From: a virus
Lineage: Duplodnaviria > Caudoviricetes
Reading direction: 5' to 3' (one strand)
DNA: 64,000 bases
Virus record (IMG/VR): IMGVR_UViG_3300037851_000671
Location: 32,001-96,000 of that record
Position 1 is the first letter of the stretch, and each line of letters opens with the position of its first letter. Under the pieces are notes generated by a model that saw only the letters and a list, made by a program, of their open reading frames with translations, made no database searches and had not been told where the DNA came from. The position numbers and the translations under genes are program-made. Positions 1,794 to 9,878 of the stretch are shown here, in pieces.

Positions 1794-1815
1794 GTTAGAG
1801 AGTTTTTTTCCGAAG

Positions 1816-1874
1816 GATCGGAGGGGTTTAGCGGCCCCTCCTGATCGCCAGGGTTGTTGACAGAGTTGGCAACC
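1816..1874 (+). promoter_or_regulatory. Two tandem RNA hairpins in the leader of the major capsid gene
   Basis: gatc-ggagggg (1816-1826) pairs with cccctcc-t-gatc (1835-1846); ggttgttgac (1852-1861) pairs with gttggcaacc (1865-1874) using three G-U pairs; SD caggag follows. Confidence 0.5.
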
Positions 1875-1899
1875 TATAACCAAAAACAGGAGTCTACAC

Positions 1900-2127
1900 A
1901 TGTCTTTTTTTAATACACAGGGCACCGTAAATGCCACCAGTTTGAAGGATGCATTGAACACAATCGTTCGTTATGCATCGATCCTCGAAGAGGGACAGCC
2001 CTCCAACATGCAGCTTGCCGGACAGCCAAGCCTAAACAACGAGAAGCGTGATGAGCTGATTTCTCGTGCGATTCTGACACAGGAAGGAAAGATTGCCCTT
2101 GCCCAGGCCATGGCGAACCCAATCCGT
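1900..2127 (+). CDS. Major capsid protein, exon 1 (76 aa)
   Basis: SD caggag; MSFFNT...LAQAMANPIR ends at CGT 2125-2127 and is followed by an intronic TAA; joins exon 2 in frame to give ANPIR|RNLDYQGIARR. Confidence 0.9.
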
Positions 2128-3294
2128 TAAGTAACCGGCGGATGTAAAATTTAGCTATATGCTGGAACCTCCGAAAGCCTAATCACCGCAGCACTCAACA
2201 GGCCGACCACAGTAGGCGGCTTAAAACAAGCTAAGGTAACAGAATTAGGATGAAACGGACAATCAGCAGGAAAGGCAGACAAAATGGAAATGTATATAAA
2301 ACAATATGAAGCTGGCCTTACAATAAAACAAATTGCAGAACTTAACGAAGTTTCTTTTGAAGCAGTTAGAAAAGCAATAAAAGGCAAAGTGAAATGGCGT
2401 AGAAATTACATTTCAGATTTTACCGAAGAGCAGAAACAAAAAGCTATAAAAATGTTTGATGATGGGCAAACGGTCAAAGAGATAGCAAAGTGGTTTGAGA
2501 TATCACCACCAGCAATATCAAGACTCCTGATAGCAAACAATAGACAGCCTGATTCTTCTGCTAGAAGATATGAGATACTAAGAGCAACACCTCTAAATCT
2601 AATTCAAAAACAATTTATCGTTGGACATTTATTAGGCGATGGTTGTTTATATAGGGATGGAGAAAACTCACTGTTCAAAATATCACTCTCTCATAAAAAA
2701 GAACATGAACAATACTTCCACTGGAAAAGAACGATGTTAGATCCGTTCGTAAACACTTGGAGGGAAAATACAGATAAGAGAGGTAATTCGGTAATGTTAA
2801 ATGCAACAACGATATGTCATCCAGAATTAAAGCAATTTGCTGACATGTTCTATACACAAGATAGAATAAAGGTTGTGCCAAAAAATCTTGATTTATTTTT
2901 GACACCACTTAGTTTAGCAGTTTGGATAATGGATGATGGCAATCTGAATAGCGGAGTAAATATGAGAATAGCCACAATGGGTTTCTCAAGTGAAGACCAT
3001 ATAAGATTGCAGGACTATCTAAGAAGTGTGTTTGATATAAGAAGTAAAATAATGGGTTTTAGTTATAAAGGTAAACAATACCAGCAAATAACAATAAACA
3101 AAGAAAACACTCAAAAGTTATCAAACATAGTTAGGCCGTATATAATTGATTGCATGAAATACAAGATAATGTCTGATTCCTCAACGACTGAATGCTAAAC
3201 ACTAACAAATAGTGATGTTACAGTCTGAACCATATAGAGATATATGGAGCCAAGCAGAAATGACTTGGCCGGCTTCCCTAGCCGTAACACTTTG
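2128..3294 (+). ncRNA. Group I self-splicing intron (1167 nt) in the major capsid gene
   Basis: P1: exon atccgt (2122-2127) pairs with gcggat (2138-2143), U-G at the splice site. P3 tttagc 2150-2155/gctaaa 3194-3199; P4 tgctg 2160-2164/cagca 2264-2268; P6 ggaa/ttcc; P7 gactg 3186-3190/cagtc 3221-3225; P8 cacta/tagtg 3200-3214; P9 ccatata-GAGA-tatatgg; further 3' stems gccaag/cttggc and cggc/gccg; terminal G 3294. Confidence 0.93.
2284..3198 (+). CDS. Intron-encoded LAGLIDADG homing endonuclease with N-terminal HTH-like segments
   Basis: Motifs FIVGHLLGDGCL and LAVWIMDDGNL (two-motif LAGLIDADG). Sits in the P6 loop; its last codons overlap the P6/P7/P3 core strands. Confidence 0.9.
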   Translation: MEMYIKQYEAGLTIKQIAELNEVSFEAVRKAIKGKVKWRRNYISDFTEEQKQKAIKMFDDGQTVKEIAKWFEISPPAISRLLIANNRQPDSSARRYEILRATPLNLIQKQFIVGHLLGDGCLYRDGENSLFKISLSHKKEHEQYFHWKRTMLDPFVNTWRENTDKRGNSVMLNATTICHPELKQFADMFYTQDRIKVVPKNLDLFLTPLSLAVWIMDDGNLNSGVNMRIATMGFSSEDHIRLQDYLRSVFDIRSKIMGFSYKGKQYQQITINKENTQKLSNIVRPYIIDCMKYKIMSDSSTTEC

Positions 3295-4077
3295 CGCAAC
3301 TTGGACTACCAGGGTATTGCGCGTCGTCTCTTGGTTGTTGACCCGCTCCCACAGGGCGTCAACCCAACCTACGAGCGTGATATTGACGTAGCTGCAACCG
3401 TTGTTTCCAGCAATGGAACCGGTGGTGAGAGCCGCGTATTCGGTGACCGTATCACCGTTCCAACGTTCGAGCTTTACTCCAACCCAACGGTTAGAATCTC
3501 TGAGGTTCGTCGTCGTCGTTTCAACGTCATTGACCGTGCAGTGCAGAAGGCCCGTCAGGAGCTGATGGCTCAGGAAGATGCAAACATCTTCGCAGCCATT
3601 GACGCTGCTGCTCAGGTTGAGAACGTTGTACAGGACATCGCTGACGGTGGTCTCCTCAAGCGTGACCTTGTTGAGATCAAGGCGCAGATTGATCGCTGGG
3701 ACTTGGTAACGACCAAGTTCTTCATGAACATCAATGAGTTTACAGACATCCTCAACTGGGCATCCGGCGGCGGCCAGGGTCCAGGTGGTGGTGAAGTTGA
3801 CCCAGTTACACAGCGTGAGATTCTCCAGACCGGCCTCTACGCCCACATCTGGGGCGCGGACATCATGGTCTCCAAGATTGTTCCATCGGGAACTGTCTAC
3901 GGCGCAGCTGACCCAGAGTTCGTAGGTGTAATGCCAATCCGTCAGGACATCGAAGTTATCCCAGCTGACGAGCCAAAGCAACTTAAACTCGGGTGGGTGG
4001 TATCAGAAGAAATCGGAATCGGCATTGTCAACCCAAGAGGCACAGCCGTTTCCAGAAAGTCAACGCTGGTCGGATAA
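3295..4077 (+). CDS. Major capsid protein, exon 2 (260 aa; spliced product 336 aa), HK97-like fold
   Basis: RNLDYQGIARRLLVVDPLPQG...IGIGIVNPRG; strongly biased codon usage; followed by a strong terminator. The ORF-track start at 3244 lies inside the intron. Confidence 0.85.
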   Translation, partial: RNLDYQGIARRLLVVDPLPQGVNPTYERDIDVAATVVSSNGTGGESRVFGDRITVPTFELYSNPTVRISEVRRRRFNVIDRAVQKARQELMAQEDANIFAAIDAAAQVENVVQDIADGGLLKRDLVEIKAQIDRWDLVTTKFFMNINEFTDILNWASGGGQGPGGGEVDPVTQREILQTGLYAHIWGADIMVSKIVPSGTVYGAADPEFVGVMPIRQDIEVIPADEPKQLKLGWVVSEEIGIGIVNPRGTAVSRKSTLVG

Positions 4078-4102
4078 TTGAACCAGTAACGGTTACATAA
4101 CG

Positions 4103-4132
4103 GAAGGCGGGATTATTCCCGCCTTCTTTTTT
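4103..4132 (+). terminator. Rho-independent terminator after the major capsid gene
   Basis: 10-bp stem gaaggcggga/tcccgccttc, ttat loop, followed by T6. Confidence 0.9.
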
Positions 4133-4170
4133 CTTTGCGTGACCCTAAATAATTCTAATCGTTTTTAACT

Positions 4171-4176
4171 GATATA
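4171..4176 (+). promoter_or_regulatory. Candidate phage promoter class B, G(A/T)TATA-N9-start (first instance)
   Basis: Motif exactly 9 nt before start codons at 4171, 14694, 25431 (GTTATA), 26545, 30247, 49488 and 53812. Confidence 0.6.
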
Positions 4177-4185
4177 TGGATCGGC

Positions 4186-4452
4186 ATGAAAGAGCCAAGG
4201 ATAGTTTGTGTGCTAGCGCAATCAGAACCAGAGTACGTTGGTAAAATGCCGCTTCGTTCTGATATAGTTGTTCTACCAGCTGATGATCCTAAATTACTGA
4301 AAAAAATTGGTTTTAGTGTTGAAGAGAAAATTGGTATTGGTGTTGTCAATCCAAGAGGCGTGGCTATAGCAAGCAAGATAACTGTTGTTGATGGAATATT
4401 GAACGAACACCCTCCGGCTTTGGTAATTCGTAAAGTTACTATTGTTGAATGA
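4186..4452 (+). CDS. Small paralogue of the major capsid protein C-terminus
   Basis: PEYVGKMPLRSDIVVLPADDPKLLKKIGFSVEEKIGIGVVNPRG vs capsid PEFVGVMPIRQDIEVIPADEPKQLKLGWVVSEEIGIGIVNPRG; about 31 of 53 positions identical by eye. Confidence 0.75.
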   Translation: MKEPRIVCVLAQSEPEYVGKMPLRSDIVVLPADDPKLLKKIGFSVEEKIGIGVVNPRGVAIASKITVVDGILNEHPPALVIRKVTIVE

Positions 4453-4517
4453 TTGTCATGTTGCGTTGGTCGCGCACTGTATATTTAGGTATATTGGTGC
4501 GATTATACCAATGGTGA

Positions 4518-7500
4518 TTGATAATGACAACAAATAGGCAAACTGTTATTGTTCCTGATGAAGTTACTTATCCAGACGGGTACGTTGTTACATATGACCT
4601 TGTAAGTCAGTCATTTGTACCTAAAGCCCCAATAACATCGTATGGTCCAACGGGTCCTACAGGGGCCACCGGTCCCATTGGCCTTGGGTATGCAGGGCTC
4701 ACTTCAAATACTAGTTTTGCATCTAGTGATACCGGTACTAAGATTCTAACAACAAATCTATCTTCTATACAAACCTCATTTGGTGTTGGAACAAGAATTA
4801 GGGTTGCTTCAGCGGCAACACCAACAGATTTTGTTGAAGGCATCATTGCGTCTTTTGGCGGTTCGCTGTTGAGTTTCACCATAGATTACAATTCTGGTAG
4901 CGGAACACATACAGATTGGAACATAAGCGTAGCTGGACAAGTTGGATCTACAGGACCAACCGGAGCAACGGGACCAACTGGTGCGACCGGAGCAACAGGA
5001 GCAACGGGATATGGAAACTATGATTTGAACAATCTGTACCCAAATGTAATTCAAGATCCAACTGGGTTTGCTACAAGAACAACATCAAAAGTGACACTGG
5101 ATGTTGGTAATAAAACCCTAATCATAGATCCTGTTGGTGGTTCAACGTTTGATTACTACATAATGGGTATCAAGTATACGGTTGGTACAAAATCGGTAGC
5201 TTGGACAGCTGTCGAAGGATCGCATTTCTTCTACCTAGACTCAAGTAGTAATCTGGTTCATACAACAGATCCAACGGTATGGGCGGCGTGCATTCTTGGA
5301 ACTGCTGGGGCACCTGTTTGGTTTTTGGCCTGGGATAATACCAATAGCAAAATCCTAAGATCCATTGAAGAAAGGCACGGAACACAGTTGCCTGGTTCTA
5401 TCCATTCTTATCTTCACACCTATTTGGGAACACAATGGAAAAGTGGTGGTGCGTTAGCAAACTTCACAATAAGCACTGGAGCTGCTGATTCGCACGCTCA
5501 ATTTTCTGTTGATGACGTTGTGATAGCTGATGAGGATTTGCAGAGAAGCATTACAAATGCTGCATCACAAGTATTGTCAACAGTAGCTCAGTTGCCTGTT
5601 TTTTATCTATCTGGCACAATTGCTAGTCCTGTTTTTAGATTCAAAGAAGCTGATACATTCCCATTCATACAAAGTGGCTCAGCGGGATATACCGGAGCAA
5701 ATGGTAGAATTGCGTATAACGAAAATACAGGTGCCAATTGGGTTTTGACAGAGGTTCCTGTAAACGACAATTACGTACTATCTCATATAATTGCAACACC
5801 AGCACCAGACGGCTACACACCGATTATGGCTGTGCTAGGACAGACGTTTTATACTACGCTGGCCAATGCAACAACGGGGGCAACTACTGAAGCAGGATCT
5901 CTTCAGGGTTTGGTGTCTTTGATGTCAACCGAGTATAAAATACTTGGAACGGTTATCTATCAAACAAATTCTGGATATGGAAACACAGTAAAAGCAAGAG
6001 TGGTTGCTCCGTCTACTGGTGGTAATTATGTTGATTTTAGAGCTTCCAAATTCAACAACTCCACTACACAAGGCGCTGCGGGACCAACCGGAATAGGGTA
6101 TGCTGGATTTTCTTCTGCAACTTCTTTTGCATCAAATACGACAGGGCCAATTTCAATAACTACAAACTTCGCCAATACAGCAACAGCTTTTGCGGTTGGG
6201 GATAGAATAAGGGTGGCATCTCTCGCTACGCCGACAGATTTTGTCGAGGGTATAGTTACAGCGTTTTCTGGAACGTCGTTGACATTTACATCTGATTTGA
6301 CATCAGGTTCTGGAACACATACTGATTGGGTTATTGGAATTGCTGGTCAACAGGGAACCACAGGACCAACAGGACCAACAGGTGCCACTGGGGCAACGGG
6401 AATTGGATACGCAGGTCTAACGTCATCCACATCTTTTGTAGCTTCTTCAGTTACGCCAGTAAGCCCGGCAACTATAACCACAAACCTAGCATCAACAGCG
6501 AGTGCATTTGCTGTAGGGGAGCGAGTACGAGTAGCCTCGGCCGGTACACCAGCAGATTACGCAGAAGGTCCAATTTCATCTTTCAGCGGCACTACCATGG
6601 TAATCACCTGGGATTTTGGTGCAGGATCTGGAAGTGCCCATACTGATTGGACTATTTCAGCAACCGGTGTGAGAGGTTCCACTGGACCTACTGGACCTAC
6701 TGGACCTACTGGACCTACTGGGGCCACAGGCGCTACTGGCCCTTTGGTTCCATTATCAACAATCCTTGGTGTTGGTGATACAACAGATGGAAATGACATT
6801 TACCTAACAGGAACTGACAGGTTATTAACTGATGCCGGTTACCTTGCAAAATCAGGTGGTTCAATACGTTTAAATGGAAAAGACGGGATTCCAGGCCAAG
6901 ATGGTTATTCTGTTTACATTCGTTCTGGAGACTCTATTGATGGGTACGCTGGTATCGCTATTACGTTATCTGCTGCCGTGTCTGGATCTTATGCTGGAGG
7001 GTTAAATCTATACACAGGAAATTTTGGTAGTTATGGTAAAGCGGCCAGTGCAAATATAAACAACGCATCTTCTGGACAGTCAGCGTATTGGTACATAACA
7101 TCCGGAGGTTTTGGTAGTGATACAGATGCAGTATTCCAACTAGGATCATCTTCGGCTTCCAATTCCTATGGTTGGAAACTTGCTGGTGGAACATTTGGAG
7201 GATCTGGCAACGGAACAGGCGCAACGCTTGAAGCAAAAGCTGTAACATCATCATACGGATCAGAGATATACATTAGCACAGGCGGAACAACCGATGGTTA
7301 TCCTGGTACGTCAATGTCGCTATGGAAAGCACAAAATGGTTTGAATGCCGGTGGTTTTAATCTATATACAGGCGATTTTGGAAGTTTTGGAAAAGCGGCA
7401 TCAGCAGTTATAGACGGGGCATCTGCTACACAATCGGCATATTGGTTCTTGTCATCTGGAGGTTTTGGAACACATTCAGGATCCACTTTCCAATTGGGTC

Positions 7501-9878
7501 GTGCAATTTCTGCTTCCACTTTTGGTTGGTCTTTGGTTGGTGGAAATTACACGGGAATAAGCAACACCGGAGCTAGTTTCTCTGGATCGAGTGCGTTATC
7601 AACAAACGGATCAAACATTACACTAACGTCTGGAATATCTCCAGATGGGTATCCGTCAGCTACATTAAATATTTACGGTGGTAGAACAGCAACCAGAGAT
7701 GGTTATGTTGGAATAAATTCCTGGCTTAAGATTGAAAGAAAGGCAGCCCCAACGGGTTTGGTAAACGTACTATATGCAAAATCTGCAACTAATGAACTGC
7801 ATTGGATTGATAACGCAGGAACCGATAATATCATATCTCCACCTGTAAGCATGCCAACCGGAACAGCTGCTCAAGTTCTTCAATACAACAACTCTTCTGT
7901 TCTTACAGCGCAGTCGATGTTGTATGCGTCTTCGACAACGATTACAGCAGCGCCAACACTTGGGTTTATCAGAGGTGCAGGTAGCGATGTTATCATTGGT
8001 GCTAAAATTGGAGCAAACAACTTCAACGCACTGAGCCTTGATGCTGGAACTACATCACTGTGGCTGGGCTCTACTGCGGCAGCTGGTCCTACATATTTGA
8101 AACTAGGATCGCCAAGCAATGTACAATTGCAGGTTGGTAGTACCAATGCAATTCAGATTGATACATCGAACATAACCATGGTGGGAGCTGATGGAAATAC
8201 AGGGGGAAGTATCTCTCTTAGTTCTGGCGCTAGCTCTTCCATGAACACAACCAAAGCATCTATTACAATTGTTCCTGCTAATAGCGGAACCACAGCAAAT
8301 ACAAATGGTCAGGTTGGAGTAACTGGCGCTATTGTACATGCACCAAACGTTTGTCAAAAACCAATGCCAGGAGATGGGTCTACGGCTTTTTGGTGGAAAC
8401 TTGATGAGCTTGGTGCTGCTGGAGCTGTTCCAACTGCATGGGCAAGCTCAGGTACGCAAAACGTCAATTTGATAAAAGTGGGTGGAGCTGTAGCTGTTGC
8501 TCAAGGAATTCATGGTAACTGTTTATCTTTTACAGCGGCAAATGCTGCTGTAGTTTGGAACAACCTAAACCAGGCTATAAGTTCGGCGATTACGTTGTCG
8601 TTCTGGATCAATCCATCAACGTTTATTGCTAACACGTATTTTGTCACCAAAGACTACTGGTCAGAGTTTACCTATAGCAAAGGTGGTTTTTATGTTGGTT
8701 TTTCGAGCAGCGCAACTGATAACTGGACAATTTCTGTAACTGATAATGGTGGTGGAACACACACATATGCATCATCAAATTTCGCTGTTCGTAATTTGCC
8801 AATAGGAACCTGGAGTCATGTTGCTATTAGCGTGGATAGCGTTGCTTTGTCTGTGTATCTTAATGGTAAATTGATATACCGCACAACAACCGGATACACA
8901 TTGGGTTCTAGTGGTGGTTGGCATCTTGGAGGTTTGTTGTGGGGTGATGGAACTGTAATGGCAAGCACCTGCTTCACTGGTTTGATTGATGATGTCAGGG
9001 TTGATAACACTGTCAGATCTTCAAAATACATTGCTGACCTGTACAACTCAGCTTTTGGAACAGCTCAAATATACGACGGAATTTACTCACCAGATGCAAG
9101 CACTTATCTCAGGTGGATTTTTAATGAAACCGGAACACCATGGAAACATTCTGGTTTCTATGGAGGCGCTCTTGATTTGACTGTTGGACAAGGAACTGTA
9201 GACGTTGCGCCTGGATTGTTTGTAAATTCTGTACGTACATCTATTGGGAGTTTGAAAACAGCTGATACATCTGTAAACCCAGGCAATACGTTCACTATAT
9301 CTGCTTGGGTAAATCTGAGTGCATATTCTGTGGTCGATCAACTAGCCAACCTGTATAGTATCATAATATGTAAAAACTATAGACCTGTTACCGATCCTAA
9401 TCCTTGGGCATCGCCATTTGCATCAATATACATAGCACTTACTGGTGCTATGGATGGCAGTTGGGAAATTAGATTGATTACAGGATCTGGTGTAGCGAAC
9501 CTTTTTAGCATTGGTGGTGCAAATGTAATACCGCTGAACACTTGGTGTTTGATATCTCTTACATATGATGGGTCTATTGTAAAGGCTTATCTTAATGGAA
9601 ATCTTGCGGCGAGTATGTCGGCCACCGGCAACGTTGACTATGGTACAAATGGCCCATGGATGGTTGGCGGAAGGCTGACCGGTGGTAACTGGGGTAGTAA
9701 CGCTCAATACTTTGATGGTATGATTGATGATGTAAGGGTTGAGACAACTGTACGTTCAGAGGCTTATCTCAAAGCAATGTACCAGAAGGGTTTTGTTGGA
9801 ATTACGTATGTTGATGTTCAGGGTAGGTTGGTATATCAATCACCAAACGGAAACATAACTGTACTTGGGGCTGGTTGA
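4518..9878 (+). CDS. Large modular fibre protein: collagen-like GPT repeats, three ~85-aa repeats, two C-terminal LamG/concanavalin-A-like domains
   Basis: GPTGPTGATG stretches; repeats GYAG.TS..SF...RIRVAS..TP.D..EG...HTDW at about 4686, 6096 and 6405; two domains with T.S.W.N, W..vAis.D, FdG.IDDVRv. ATG start probably 4524. Confidence 0.8.
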   Translation: MIMTTNRQTVIVPDEVTYPDGYVVTYDLVSQSFVPKAPITSYGPTGPTGATGPIGLGYAGLTSNTSFASSDTGTKILTTNLSSIQTSFGVGTRIRVASAATPTDFVEGIIASFGGSLLSFTIDYNSGSGTHTDWNISVAGQVGSTGPTGATGPTGATGATGATGYGNYDLNNLYPNVIQDPTGFATRTTSKVTLDVGNKTLIIDPVGGSTFDYYIMGIKYTVGTKSVAWTAVEGSHFFYLDSSSNLVHTTDPTVWAACILGTAGAPVWFLAWDNTNSKILRSIEERHGTQLPGSIHSYLHTYLGTQWKSGGALANFTISTGAADSHAQFSVDDVVIADEDLQRSITNAASQVLSTVAQLPVFYLSGTIASPVFRFKEADTFPFIQSGSAGYTGANGRIAYNENTGANWVLTEVPVNDNYVLSHIIATPAPDGYTPIMAVLGQTFYTTLANATTGATTEAGSLQGLVSLMSTEYKILGTVIYQTNSGYGNTVKARVVAPSTGGNYVDFRASKFNNSTTQGAAGPTGIGYAGFSSATSFASNTTGPISITTNFANTATAFAVGDRIRVASLATPTDFVEGIVTAFSGTSLTFTSDLTSGSGTHTDWVIGIAGQQGTTGPTGPTGATGATGIGYAGLTSSTSFVASSVTPVSPATITTNLASTASAFAVGERVRVASAGTPADYAEGPISSFSGTTMVITWDFGAGSGSAHTDWTISATGVRGSTGPTGPTGPTGPTGATGATGPLVPLSTILGVGDTTDGNDIYLTGTDRLLTDAGYLAKSGGSIRLNGKDGIPGQDGYSVYIRSGDSIDGYAGIAITLSAAVSGSYAGGLNLYTGNFGSYGKAASANINNASSGQSAYWYITSGGFGSDTDAVFQLGSSSASNSYGWKLAGGTFGGSGNGTGATLEAKAVTSSYGSEIYISTGGTTDGYPGTSMSLWKAQNGLNAGGFNLYTGDFGSFGKAASAVIDGASATQSAYWFLSSGGFGTHSGSTFQLGRAISASTFGWSLVGGNYTGISNTGASFSGSSALSTNGSNITLTSGISPDGYPSATLNIYGGRTATRDGYVGINSWLKIERKAAPTGLVNVLYAKSATNELHWIDNAGTDNIISPPVSMPTGTAAQVLQYNNSSVLTAQSMLYASSTTITAAPTLGFIRGAGSDVIIGAKIGANNFNALSLDAGTTSLWLGSTAAAGPTYLKLGSPSNVQLQVGSTNAIQIDTSNITMVGADGNTGGSISLSSGASSSMNTTKASITIVPANSGTTANTNGQVGVTGAIVHAPNVCQKPMPGDGSTAFWWKLDELGAAGAVPTAWASSGTQNVNLIKVGGAVAVAQGIHGNCLSFTAANAAVVWNNLNQAISSAITLSFWINPSTFIANTYFVTKDYWSEFTYSKGGFYVGFSSSATDNWTISVTDNGGGTHTYASSNFAVRNLPIGTWSHVAISVDSVALSVYLNGKLIYRTTTGYTLGSSGGWHLGGLLWGDGTVMASTCFTGLIDDVRVDNTVRSSKYIADLYNSAFGTAQIYDGIYSPDASTYLRWIFNETGTPWKHSGFYGGALDLTVGQGTVDVAPGLFVNSVRTSIGSLKTADTSVNPGNTFTISAWVNLSAYSVVDQLANLYSIIICKNYRPVTDPNPWASPFASIYIALTGAMDGSWEIRLITGSGVANLFSIGGANVIPLNTWCLISLTYDGSIVKAYLNGNLAASMSATGNVDYGTNGPWMVGGRLTGGNWGSNAQYFDGMIDDVRVETTVRSEAYLKAMYQKGFVGITYVDVQGRLVYQSPNGNITVLGAG
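6681..6721 (+). repeat. Perfect 9-nt tandem repeat (actggacct x4.5) encoding collagen-like TGP
   Basis: Read directly from the sequence. Confidence 0.9.

Follow-up and report, generated by a model that had tools for sequence, protein, structure and literature searches.

The window analysed here comprises 64,000 nucleotides (nt) of a tailed-phage genome, positions 32001–96000 of the 218,772-bp IMG/VR record IMGVR_UViG_3300037851_000671, a metagenome-assembled fragment. Near the 5′ end of the window a head-decoration gene (1107–1793, phrog_49) is followed by the gene for the major capsid protein (MCP), an order that matches gp26 and gp27 of Bacillus phage G. The MCP gene is in two pieces (Table 1), separated by an insert that contains an open reading frame (ORF) of its own and has a G+C content of about 0.34, versus about 0.53 in the flanking exons. 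Both pieces match one profile in a PHROG search, that of the major head protein family phrog_2522, in consecutive segments. The product of the second piece is 53.6% identical to phage G gp27, an uninterrupted protein that reads without a gap through ...ALAQAMANPIR-VSLDYQG... at the corresponding point. The ORF as called for the first piece (1900–2130) includes an in-frame TAA (2128–2130) that forms the 5′ end of the insert; the 3′ end of the insert is G3294, and the second piece starts from CGCAAC at 3295. Joining T2127 to C3295 gives ...ALAQAMANPIR-RNLDYQG..., with no residue gained or lost relative to gp27. The predicted junction in the spliced RNA is AACCCAATCCGT-CGCAACTTGGAC and the predicted peptide across Arg76/Arg77 is ...AMANPIRRNLDY.... 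An intein was considered for the insert and ruled out, since the frame of exon 1 runs straight into TAA. The evidence set out below makes it very probable that the insert at 2128–3294 is a mobile group I self-splicing intron in the MCP gene of an uncultured jumbo phage resembling phage G.

A scan of IMG/VR with exon 2 yielded 80 related MCP loci at 76–93% identity, which are designated by L-numbers. Exon 1 directly adjoins exon 2 in 64 of the 78 related genes that could be scored, and all 14 intron-bearing MCP genes are free of stop codons after precise excision. A first-pass annotation, made from the window sequence alone, had read the locus as an MCP gene split by a group I intron with a homing-endonuclease ORF, with an in-frame junction ANPIR-RNLDY and a UAA as the first intron codon that limits the read-through product to 76 residues. 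The junction proves to be colinear and free of insertions or deletions against both gp27 and the 64 intronless relatives, the stop codon and the 76-residue product are as described, and homology, covariation and sequence agree on the split gene. These comparisons support the view that a full-length MCP would be obtainable only if the intron, with its LAGLIDADG ORF, is spliced out. A capsid protein of 277 residues, made from unspliced RNA and lacking exon 1, could in principle start at an in-frame ATG at 3244 in the intron's 3′ end, from which the frame is open into exon 2 (3244–4077). We regard this as extremely improbable: the ATG lies within the 3′ strand of P9, where no ribosome-binding site is evident; 11 of 13 family introns have no in-frame ATG ahead of exon 2; and phage G, phrog_2522 and all 80 related loci retain exon 1 as a conserved segment of the MCP.

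All core helices from P3 to P8 can be located in the insert in the order of the P3/P7 pseudoknot. The P7 helix has a bulged nucleotide beside the G-C pair of the predicted guanosine-binding site, and its sequence, A[C]GACUG/CAGUCU, matches the classical form, C[A]GACUA/UAGUCG. P2 is absent, as are P7.1 and P7.2. The full catalytic core claimed in the first-pass annotation is present, with P1, P3–P9, P9.1, P9.2 and P10, and whatever that annotation listed is found at the positions that it gave.

Insertions with a homologue of the window ORF (34–81% identity) occur in thirteen loci. A junction search for U at −1, G at the 3′ end and restoration of the conserved peptide gave one solution per intron. 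U at −1 and the terminal G are found in 13 of 13 homologous introns, and in these no junction other than the one at the terminal G gives back the conserved peptide. Unguided runs of RNAalifold on the 5′ parts of 12 introns and the 3′ parts of eight recovered P1, P4, P5, the long P5 arm, P7, P8, P9, P9.1 and P9.2, with compensatory double changes in 26 of 39 pairs in the 5′ half and 18 of 31 in the 3′ half. Compensatory changes are seen in P5, the P5 arm, P7, P8, P9, P9.1 and P9.2, and P4 is invariant. Pair counts gave 92.1% of cells paired in the 5′ half (slid controls 32–44%), with 26 of 39 pairs compensatory, and 98.3% in the 3′ half (slid controls 28–41%), with 18 of 29 pairs compensatory; in either half none of 500 shuffles was as good.

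Two helices whose strands lie about 1 kb apart, across the ORF, behave in the same way. P3 is paired at six of six positions in 12 of 13 introns, with six different sequence pairs: TTTAGC/GCTAAA in the window and TCGGC/GCCGA, CCTGGC/GCCAGG, CTTGGT/GCCAAG, TTAAGC/GCTTAA and TTTGGC/GCCAAA elsewhere. P6a covaries from CAGAC/GTCTG in the window to CAGGC/GCCTG, CTGGC/GCCAG, CTAAAG/CTTTAG and further pairs in other introns. At the 5′ splice site, the U·G pair of P1 is kept in 11 of 12 family introns, and shifts of the insertion site are accompanied by compensatory changes in five of the eight P1 pairs. The tracking of the insertion site by the guide sequence, across the three sites A, B and C (Table 1), is the most telling evidence.

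Table 1. Predicted features of the MCP locus and its intron in window coordinates, followed by insertion sites and guide sequences in related MCP genes
Feature	Position	Strand	Remarks
MCP exon 1	1900–2127	+	76 residues, C-terminal ...ALAQAMANPIR; phrog_2522 profile positions 11–69
Group I intron	2128–3294	+	1167 nt; in-frame TAA first, terminal G last
MCP exon 2	3295–4077	+	260 residues and stop; starts RNLDYQG; phrog_2522 positions 71–317, E = 5.4e-66
Intron ORF	2284–3198	+	304 residues, 915 nt; in P6a loop
5′ core block	2150–2280	+	Rfam half-match; RNAalifold and pair counts on 12 introns
3′ core block	3171–3294	+	Rfam half-match; covariation
P1 exon strand ATCCGT	2122–2127	+	U·G wobble of U2127 with G2138 marks the 5′ splice site
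Internal guide sequence CG + GCGGAT	2136–2143	+	CG (2136–2137) forms P10 with CG of exon 2; GCGGAT (2138–2143) forms P1
P3 5′ strand TTTAGC	2150–2155	+	
J3/4 TATA	Between P3 5′ strand and P4	+	
P4 TGCTGG / TCAGCA	2160–2165 / 2263–2268	+	
P5 TCCG / CGGA	2170–2173 / 2256–2259	+	
Extended P5 arm	2174–2255	+	
P6 GG / CC	2269–2270 / 3179–3180	+	
P6a CAGAC / GTCTG	2276–2280 / 3171–3175	+	
P7 A[C]GACTG / CAGTCT	3184–3190 / 3221–3226	+	
P3 3′ strand GCTAAA	3194–3199	+	
P8 CACTA / TAGTG	3200–3204 / 3210–3214	+	
J8/7	3215–3220	+	
P9 CCATATA / TATATGG	3230–3247	+	
P9.1	3249–3269	+	Conserved loop CAGAAATGA
P9.2 CGGCT / AGCCG	3270–3284	+	
Intron tail TAACACTTTG	Ends at G3294	+	
Site A	16 nt upstream of C		L072, L042
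Site B	4 nt upstream of C		L064/L065, L078, L080, L082
Site C	Window site, after the CGT codon of Arg76		Window, L009/L010, L033, L063, L066, L042
Site D	52 nt downstream of C		L077
Site A guide			P1 AGGCCAT/GTGGCCT; P10 (exon 2/guide) GGCG/CGCT
Site B guide			P1 ACCCCAT/GTGGGGT or ATCCCAT/GTGGGAT; P10 TCG/CGA
Site C guide			P1 ATCCGT/GCGGAT; P10 CG/CG

The assignment to group I was also examined with covariance models. The Rfam group I model RF00028 gave no match at the gathering cutoff in the whole window and none at an expectation value (E) of up to 10 over 2050–3400. The halves that flank the ORF do match, with RF00028 as the only intron family and with the right segments in the correct order: 2128–2290 aligns with model positions 42–118 (11.1 bits, E = 1.3) and 3140–3247 with positions 102–253 (22.9 bits, E = 3.6e-4). 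These half alignments put P3, P4 and P5 5′ of the ORF and P6′, P7, P3′, P8, J8/7-P7′ and P9 3′ of it, where the conserved UCAACGACU (P7) and GAUGUUACAGUCU (J8/7-P7′) are found. Scans of three ORF-bearing intron relatives at the Rfam gathering cutoff likewise returned no match.

Family introns that lack an ORF pass RF00028 over the full model (61–88 bits against a cutoff of 50), and the same copies score 50–114 bits with R1, a covariance model built from the 3′ half of the family introns. Examples are L144, with 72.1 bits in Rfam at 2623–2916 and 114.4 bits with R1 at 2568–2694, and L124, with 70.7 bits in Rfam at 5255–5469 and 109.6 bits with R1. Since these members pass, the failure of the window copy can be put down to its 915-nt ORF, which lies in P6a and splits the model. 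Within its own 218-kb record R1 has a single match, the window intron, at 132.8 bits; it also recovers all members outside its training (L066 at 72 bits, L077 at 62, L072 at 60 and the site-A intron of L042 at 48). By Rfam's criterion the sequence family can thus be classed as group I, a status that reaches the window copy through its relatives. A blastn search of 1800–4500 against 50,697 phage records found only the MCP exon of phage G and no similar intron.

Sequence and comparison establish the structure with its splice sites, the presence of intact motifs in the endonuclease and the patchiness of the distribution. Several points weigh against a functional mobile intron: we infer splicing in vivo, as well as cleavage by the endonuclease and its target, from sequence; the record is about 51% complete by CheckV and, as a metagenome-assembled fragment, leaves the viability of this exact genome unproven; and the window copy stays below the RF00028 gathering score of 50 bits, its halves reaching 22.9 and 11.1. 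It is nevertheless highly unlikely that the intron is a decaying relic that no longer splices and the MCP gene a pseudogene of a defective or non-viable variant, for which the incomplete metagenomic record and the RF00028 score below the cutoff could be cited. The window copy has all its core helices intact, in line with the covariation in the family, its R1 score is as high as that of any member, the ORF has kept its full length and its catalytic residues, both exons are intact, no other MCP was found in the record, and the arrangement is kept in fourteen independent contigs.

The intron ORF matches phrog_11023, annotated as `homing endonuclease with LAGLIDADG motif', and residues 110–279 of its product match Pfam LAGLIDADG_2 (PF03161; cutoff 25 bits) with a score of 116.5 bits. 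Residues 98–298 align with residues 25–229 of I-SceI (structure 3oor_A; E = 4.4e-11), and both LAGLIDADG motifs keep their acidic residues, D119 in LLGDG and D217/D218 in IMDDG. The N-terminal module of about 95 residues contains two helix-turn-helix motifs, at residues 8–32 and 46–82 (HTH_23, 36.1 bits; HTH_28). The two LAGLIDADG motifs indicate that the product would be an I-SceI-like monomeric endonuclease. Some LAGLIDADG proteins of organellar group I introns, such as I-AniI, act as maturases, and this precedent, together with the tight interleaving of the ORF with P6, P7 and P3, lends some colour to the idea that the intron splices but encodes a protein that is inactive or mainly a maturase, the intron now being inherited vertically. 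We consider this unlikely, in that both catalytic aspartates and the I-SceI-like fold signature are kept, the distribution on the MCP tree is patchy, and MCP genes still harbour family members in which the ORF is absent or truncated; because these persist, the ribozyme appears not to need the ORF protein.

The ORF runs into the P6, P7 and P3 strands, as the first-pass annotation had noticed. Its last codons (...SSTTEC*) coincide with the P6′-J6/7-P7 sequence, its 3′ end also covers P6a′, and its TAA stop codon (3196–3198) lies inside the 3′ strand of P3. At the other end, the start region is 4–15 nt from the 5′ strands of P6 and P6a, and a purine-rich AGGAAAGG just 5′ of the start coincides with the end of P4′ and with P6. 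Ribosomes must be kept out of a group I core. In 13 of 13 family introns the frame of exon 1 runs into a stop codon before P3, no more than 20 nt into the intron, and such an early stop fits with keeping ribosomes off the core. Competition between translation of the ORF and folding of the ribozyme is plausible, given that the ORF overlaps core strands; we infer it here, and it is a known theme for the introns of T4 (PMC2988022).

Taken together, these features suggest the following course of events for the mobile self-splicing intron. The MCP pre-mRNA would be transcribed through the intron, and a ribosome translating exon 1 would halt at the UAA that forms the first intron codon, never entering the ribozyme core. 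The RNA would fold into the P1–P10 architecture, in which the guide at 2136–2143 would pick both splice sites. An external guanosine would attack after U2127, and exon 1 would then be ligated to C3295, after G3294, restoring ...ANPIR-RNLDY... in an MCP of 336 residues. Intronless MCP alleles in co-infecting relatives are the most likely targets of the endonuclease encoded by the ORF, with cleavage near ATY-CGT/CGN (the slash marking the insertion point), and the cut would drive copying of the intron into the intronless allele (homing).

The distribution of the intron among the relatives is in keeping with such mobility. In a maximum-likelihood tree of 78 spliced or uninterrupted MCPs, of which 64 are intronless, the intron states require 11 changes, eight of which are forced by well-supported branches. 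The MCP encoded in the window is sister to a clade of 16 intronless and two site-C genes, and its nearest relative by path, L007, is intronless. Sporadic presence of this kind suggests that the intron is mobile. The exon bases beside each type of intron are uniform, with ATCCGT/CG in all site-C alleles, and intronless alleles mostly have ATT-CGT followed by AGA or CGT; the uniform flanks fit both the requirements of P1 and P10 and co-conversion during homing, and are proof of neither.

In addition to sites A–D, insertions in MCP genes of this clade are found after exon-2 residues ∼88–92 and ∼171, giving at least six MCP sites in total. In a motif scan, the MCP loci L112, L141, L144, L114 and L107 were found to carry two to four family introns per gene, after exon-2 residues 17/18, ∼88–92 and ∼171, with three or more in L112, L141 and L144, and some of these copies are ORF-less, ∼270–350 nt in length, and pass RF00028. 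In this clade, the MCP gene is a hot spot for introns. L042 has twin introns at site A (1097–2307) and site C (2324–3499), separated by a 16-nt exon, GGCGAATCCCATCCGT, each with its own endonuclease ORF and matching guide. The site-C intron of L066 (2050–4000) is 1951 nt long and contains two LAGLIDADG ORFs, one of 282 residues in P6a and one of 311 residues in the P8 loop, that are 36% identical to each other. L078 is an 832-nt deletion derivative with a truncated ORF, found beside the full-length form in L080. The endonucleases of sites B and C intermix (those of L063 at site C and L064 at site B are 67% identical) and the site-C endonuclease of L066 groups with the site-D endonuclease of L077, so that kinship among the enzymes does not strictly follow the site.

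The P4-P5-P4′ core motif, used as a search pattern in IMG/VR, picked out 54 loci, in which R1 matches 83 places. As judged from these matches, the intron family also occupies genes other than that for MCP. The core motif is accompanied by R1 and/or Rfam matches, with no MCP match nearby and often with several copies per locus, in L096, L098, L105, L108, L113, L115, L119, L120, L124, L125, L126, L135 and L138, and the distantly MCP-like locus L134 has eight R1 matches. Weak R1 matches (∼23 bits, E ∼0.002) at L081:7406–7508 and L052:1552–1709 lie within a few kb of MCP genes that have no intron, and may represent diverged introns of genes nearby. LAGLIDADG-like ORFs are also present downstream of the MCP gene in L012, L021/L022 and L047.

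Sites A, B and C fall within 16 nt, sites B and C are exactly 4 nt apart, and the guide sequence of the ribozyme has changed with each shift of site. LAGLIDADG enzymes cleave to leave a 4-nt overhang. A speculative and rather doubtful reading of this series is that a single intron and LAGLIDADG lineage has been retargeted repeatedly among neighbouring MCP positions, with the endonuclease serving as a weapon against intronless co-infecting relatives; if so, carriage of the intron would be a competitive advantage and more than a cost alone. An intron-encoded endonuclease of phage PhiPA3, gp210, is reported to interfere with a co-infecting virus in competition between jumbo phages (PMC11620839). 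The likeness lies in a mobile intron in an essential gene of a jumbo phage, with an endonuclease that could cut the intronless allele of a co-infecting relative, and we put forward a comparable competitive role for the window element as a hypothesis by analogy.

Introns in capsid genes are already established in other phages. The statement in the first-pass annotation that phage group I introns are mostly reported in DNA-metabolism genes is broadly true, but the novelty that it attached to a capsid-gene intron was overstated, as such introns have been published. In mycobacteriophage LittleE (Cluster J), splicing of a capsid-gene intron was demonstrated by reverse-transcription polymerase chain reaction and N-terminal sequencing (PMC3706429), a report in which a capsid-gene intron of the lactococcal phage Tuc2009 is also cited. 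The LittleE and window introns both lie near the 5′ end of a tailed-phage major capsid gene, have U before the 5′ splice site, G at the intron end and a LAGLIDADG-like ORF, and occur in only some closely related genomes. They differ in that splicing was demonstrated for LittleE and is predicted from sequence here, in that the LittleE ORF is on the opposite strand whereas the window ORF is on the sense strand, inside P6a and overlapping the core, and in that the LittleE intron was called `most likely group I', whereas the structure proposed here is backed by covariation.

In crAss-like phages of the Delta and Zeta groups, group I introns interrupt core genes that include the MCP gene (PMC7886860). 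In Jug jumbo gut phages, group I introns number ∼18.5 per genome, and metatranscriptomic data support half of the ones tested (PMC12880540). As in the window lineage, these are metagenomic phages with core genes split by several endonuclease-bearing group I introns, MCP being among the split genes in the crAss-like phages and terL, nrdD and the DNA polymerase gene in the Jug phages. One crAss Zeta MCP gene is in five pieces, and relatives of the window have up to three or four introns per MCP gene. The window lineage differs from both groups in being phage-G-like, with a phrog_2522 MCP and the standard genetic code, and the window genome has one copy of this intron family in 218 kb plus an intein in its terminase.

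The introns of T4 td, nrdB and sunY (I-TevI/II/III; PMC2988022) resemble the window intron in having an endonuclease ORF looped out of a peripheral helix, an in-frame stop soon after the 5′ splice site and an ORF start that adjoins ribozyme pairings. The genes that hold them function in nucleotide metabolism, their subgroup is IA2, with P7.1/P7.2, and their enzymes are of the GIY-YIG or HNH type, whereas the window intron, with neither P2 nor P7.1/P7.2, has an extended P5 arm, P9.1 and P9.2, and a LAGLIDADG enzyme. I-SceI, from the group I intron of yeast mitochondrial 21S rRNA, is likewise an intron-encoded monomeric enzyme with two motifs and both catalytic aspartates; the window protein has in addition the N-terminal double helix-turn-helix of ∼95 residues, and its predicted target is a phage capsid gene. 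What is new here is the phage-G-like jumbo lineage, this family of intron and endonuclease, and the set of retargeted sites.

A capsid of the phage G type requires thousands of MCP copies per virion, and each MCP mRNA would need to undergo correct splicing; if the reading as a self-splicing intron is right, the ribozyme has to work with high efficiency in vivo. To see splicing as a regulatory gate on capsid production, as had been proposed, is speculation, and the evidence reaches as far as an obligatory processing step. The intron also accounts for the 76-residue stub and N-terminally truncated capsid protein that gene callers would give both here and in many related metagenomic jumbo phages. 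More interest lies in the comparative set than in the window copy: at least six sites, guide shifts of 4 and 16 nt, twin introns, a two-ORF intron and ORF-less or truncated forms make up a compact natural retargeting series, useful for understanding how group I introns and their endonucleases switch target sites.

The same genome contains a second LAGLIDADG element. Outside the window, the gene for the terminase large subunit (GpA_ATPase, Terminase_6N; G000:C1 ∼4876–7831, equivalent to L003:580–3534) is interrupted by an intein (Intein_splicing, 55.8 bits) that includes an endonuclease domain (LAGLIDADG_2, 72.6 bits) and is 35% identical to the nuclease domain of the intron ORF. With the intron in the MCP gene, two core head genes would thus each carry a LAGLIDADG mobile element, one acting at the RNA level and the other at the protein level.

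Just past the MCP terminator, in low-GC DNA, an ORF of 88 residues (4186–4452, + strand) duplicates the C-terminus of MCP, with 56% identity over 61 residues to exon-2 residues 200–259 and a match to phrog_2522 positions 267–318. A second copy of the MCP C-terminus was found in none of the 80 related loci, and for this reason no link to the activity of the intron or its endonuclease is drawn. Directly downstream, an ORF of 1786 residues (4518–9878, + strand) contains collagen-like Gly-X-Y runs (GPTGATGPTG...) between repeated domains of ∼100 residues, and its product is probably a fibre or head-decoration protein.

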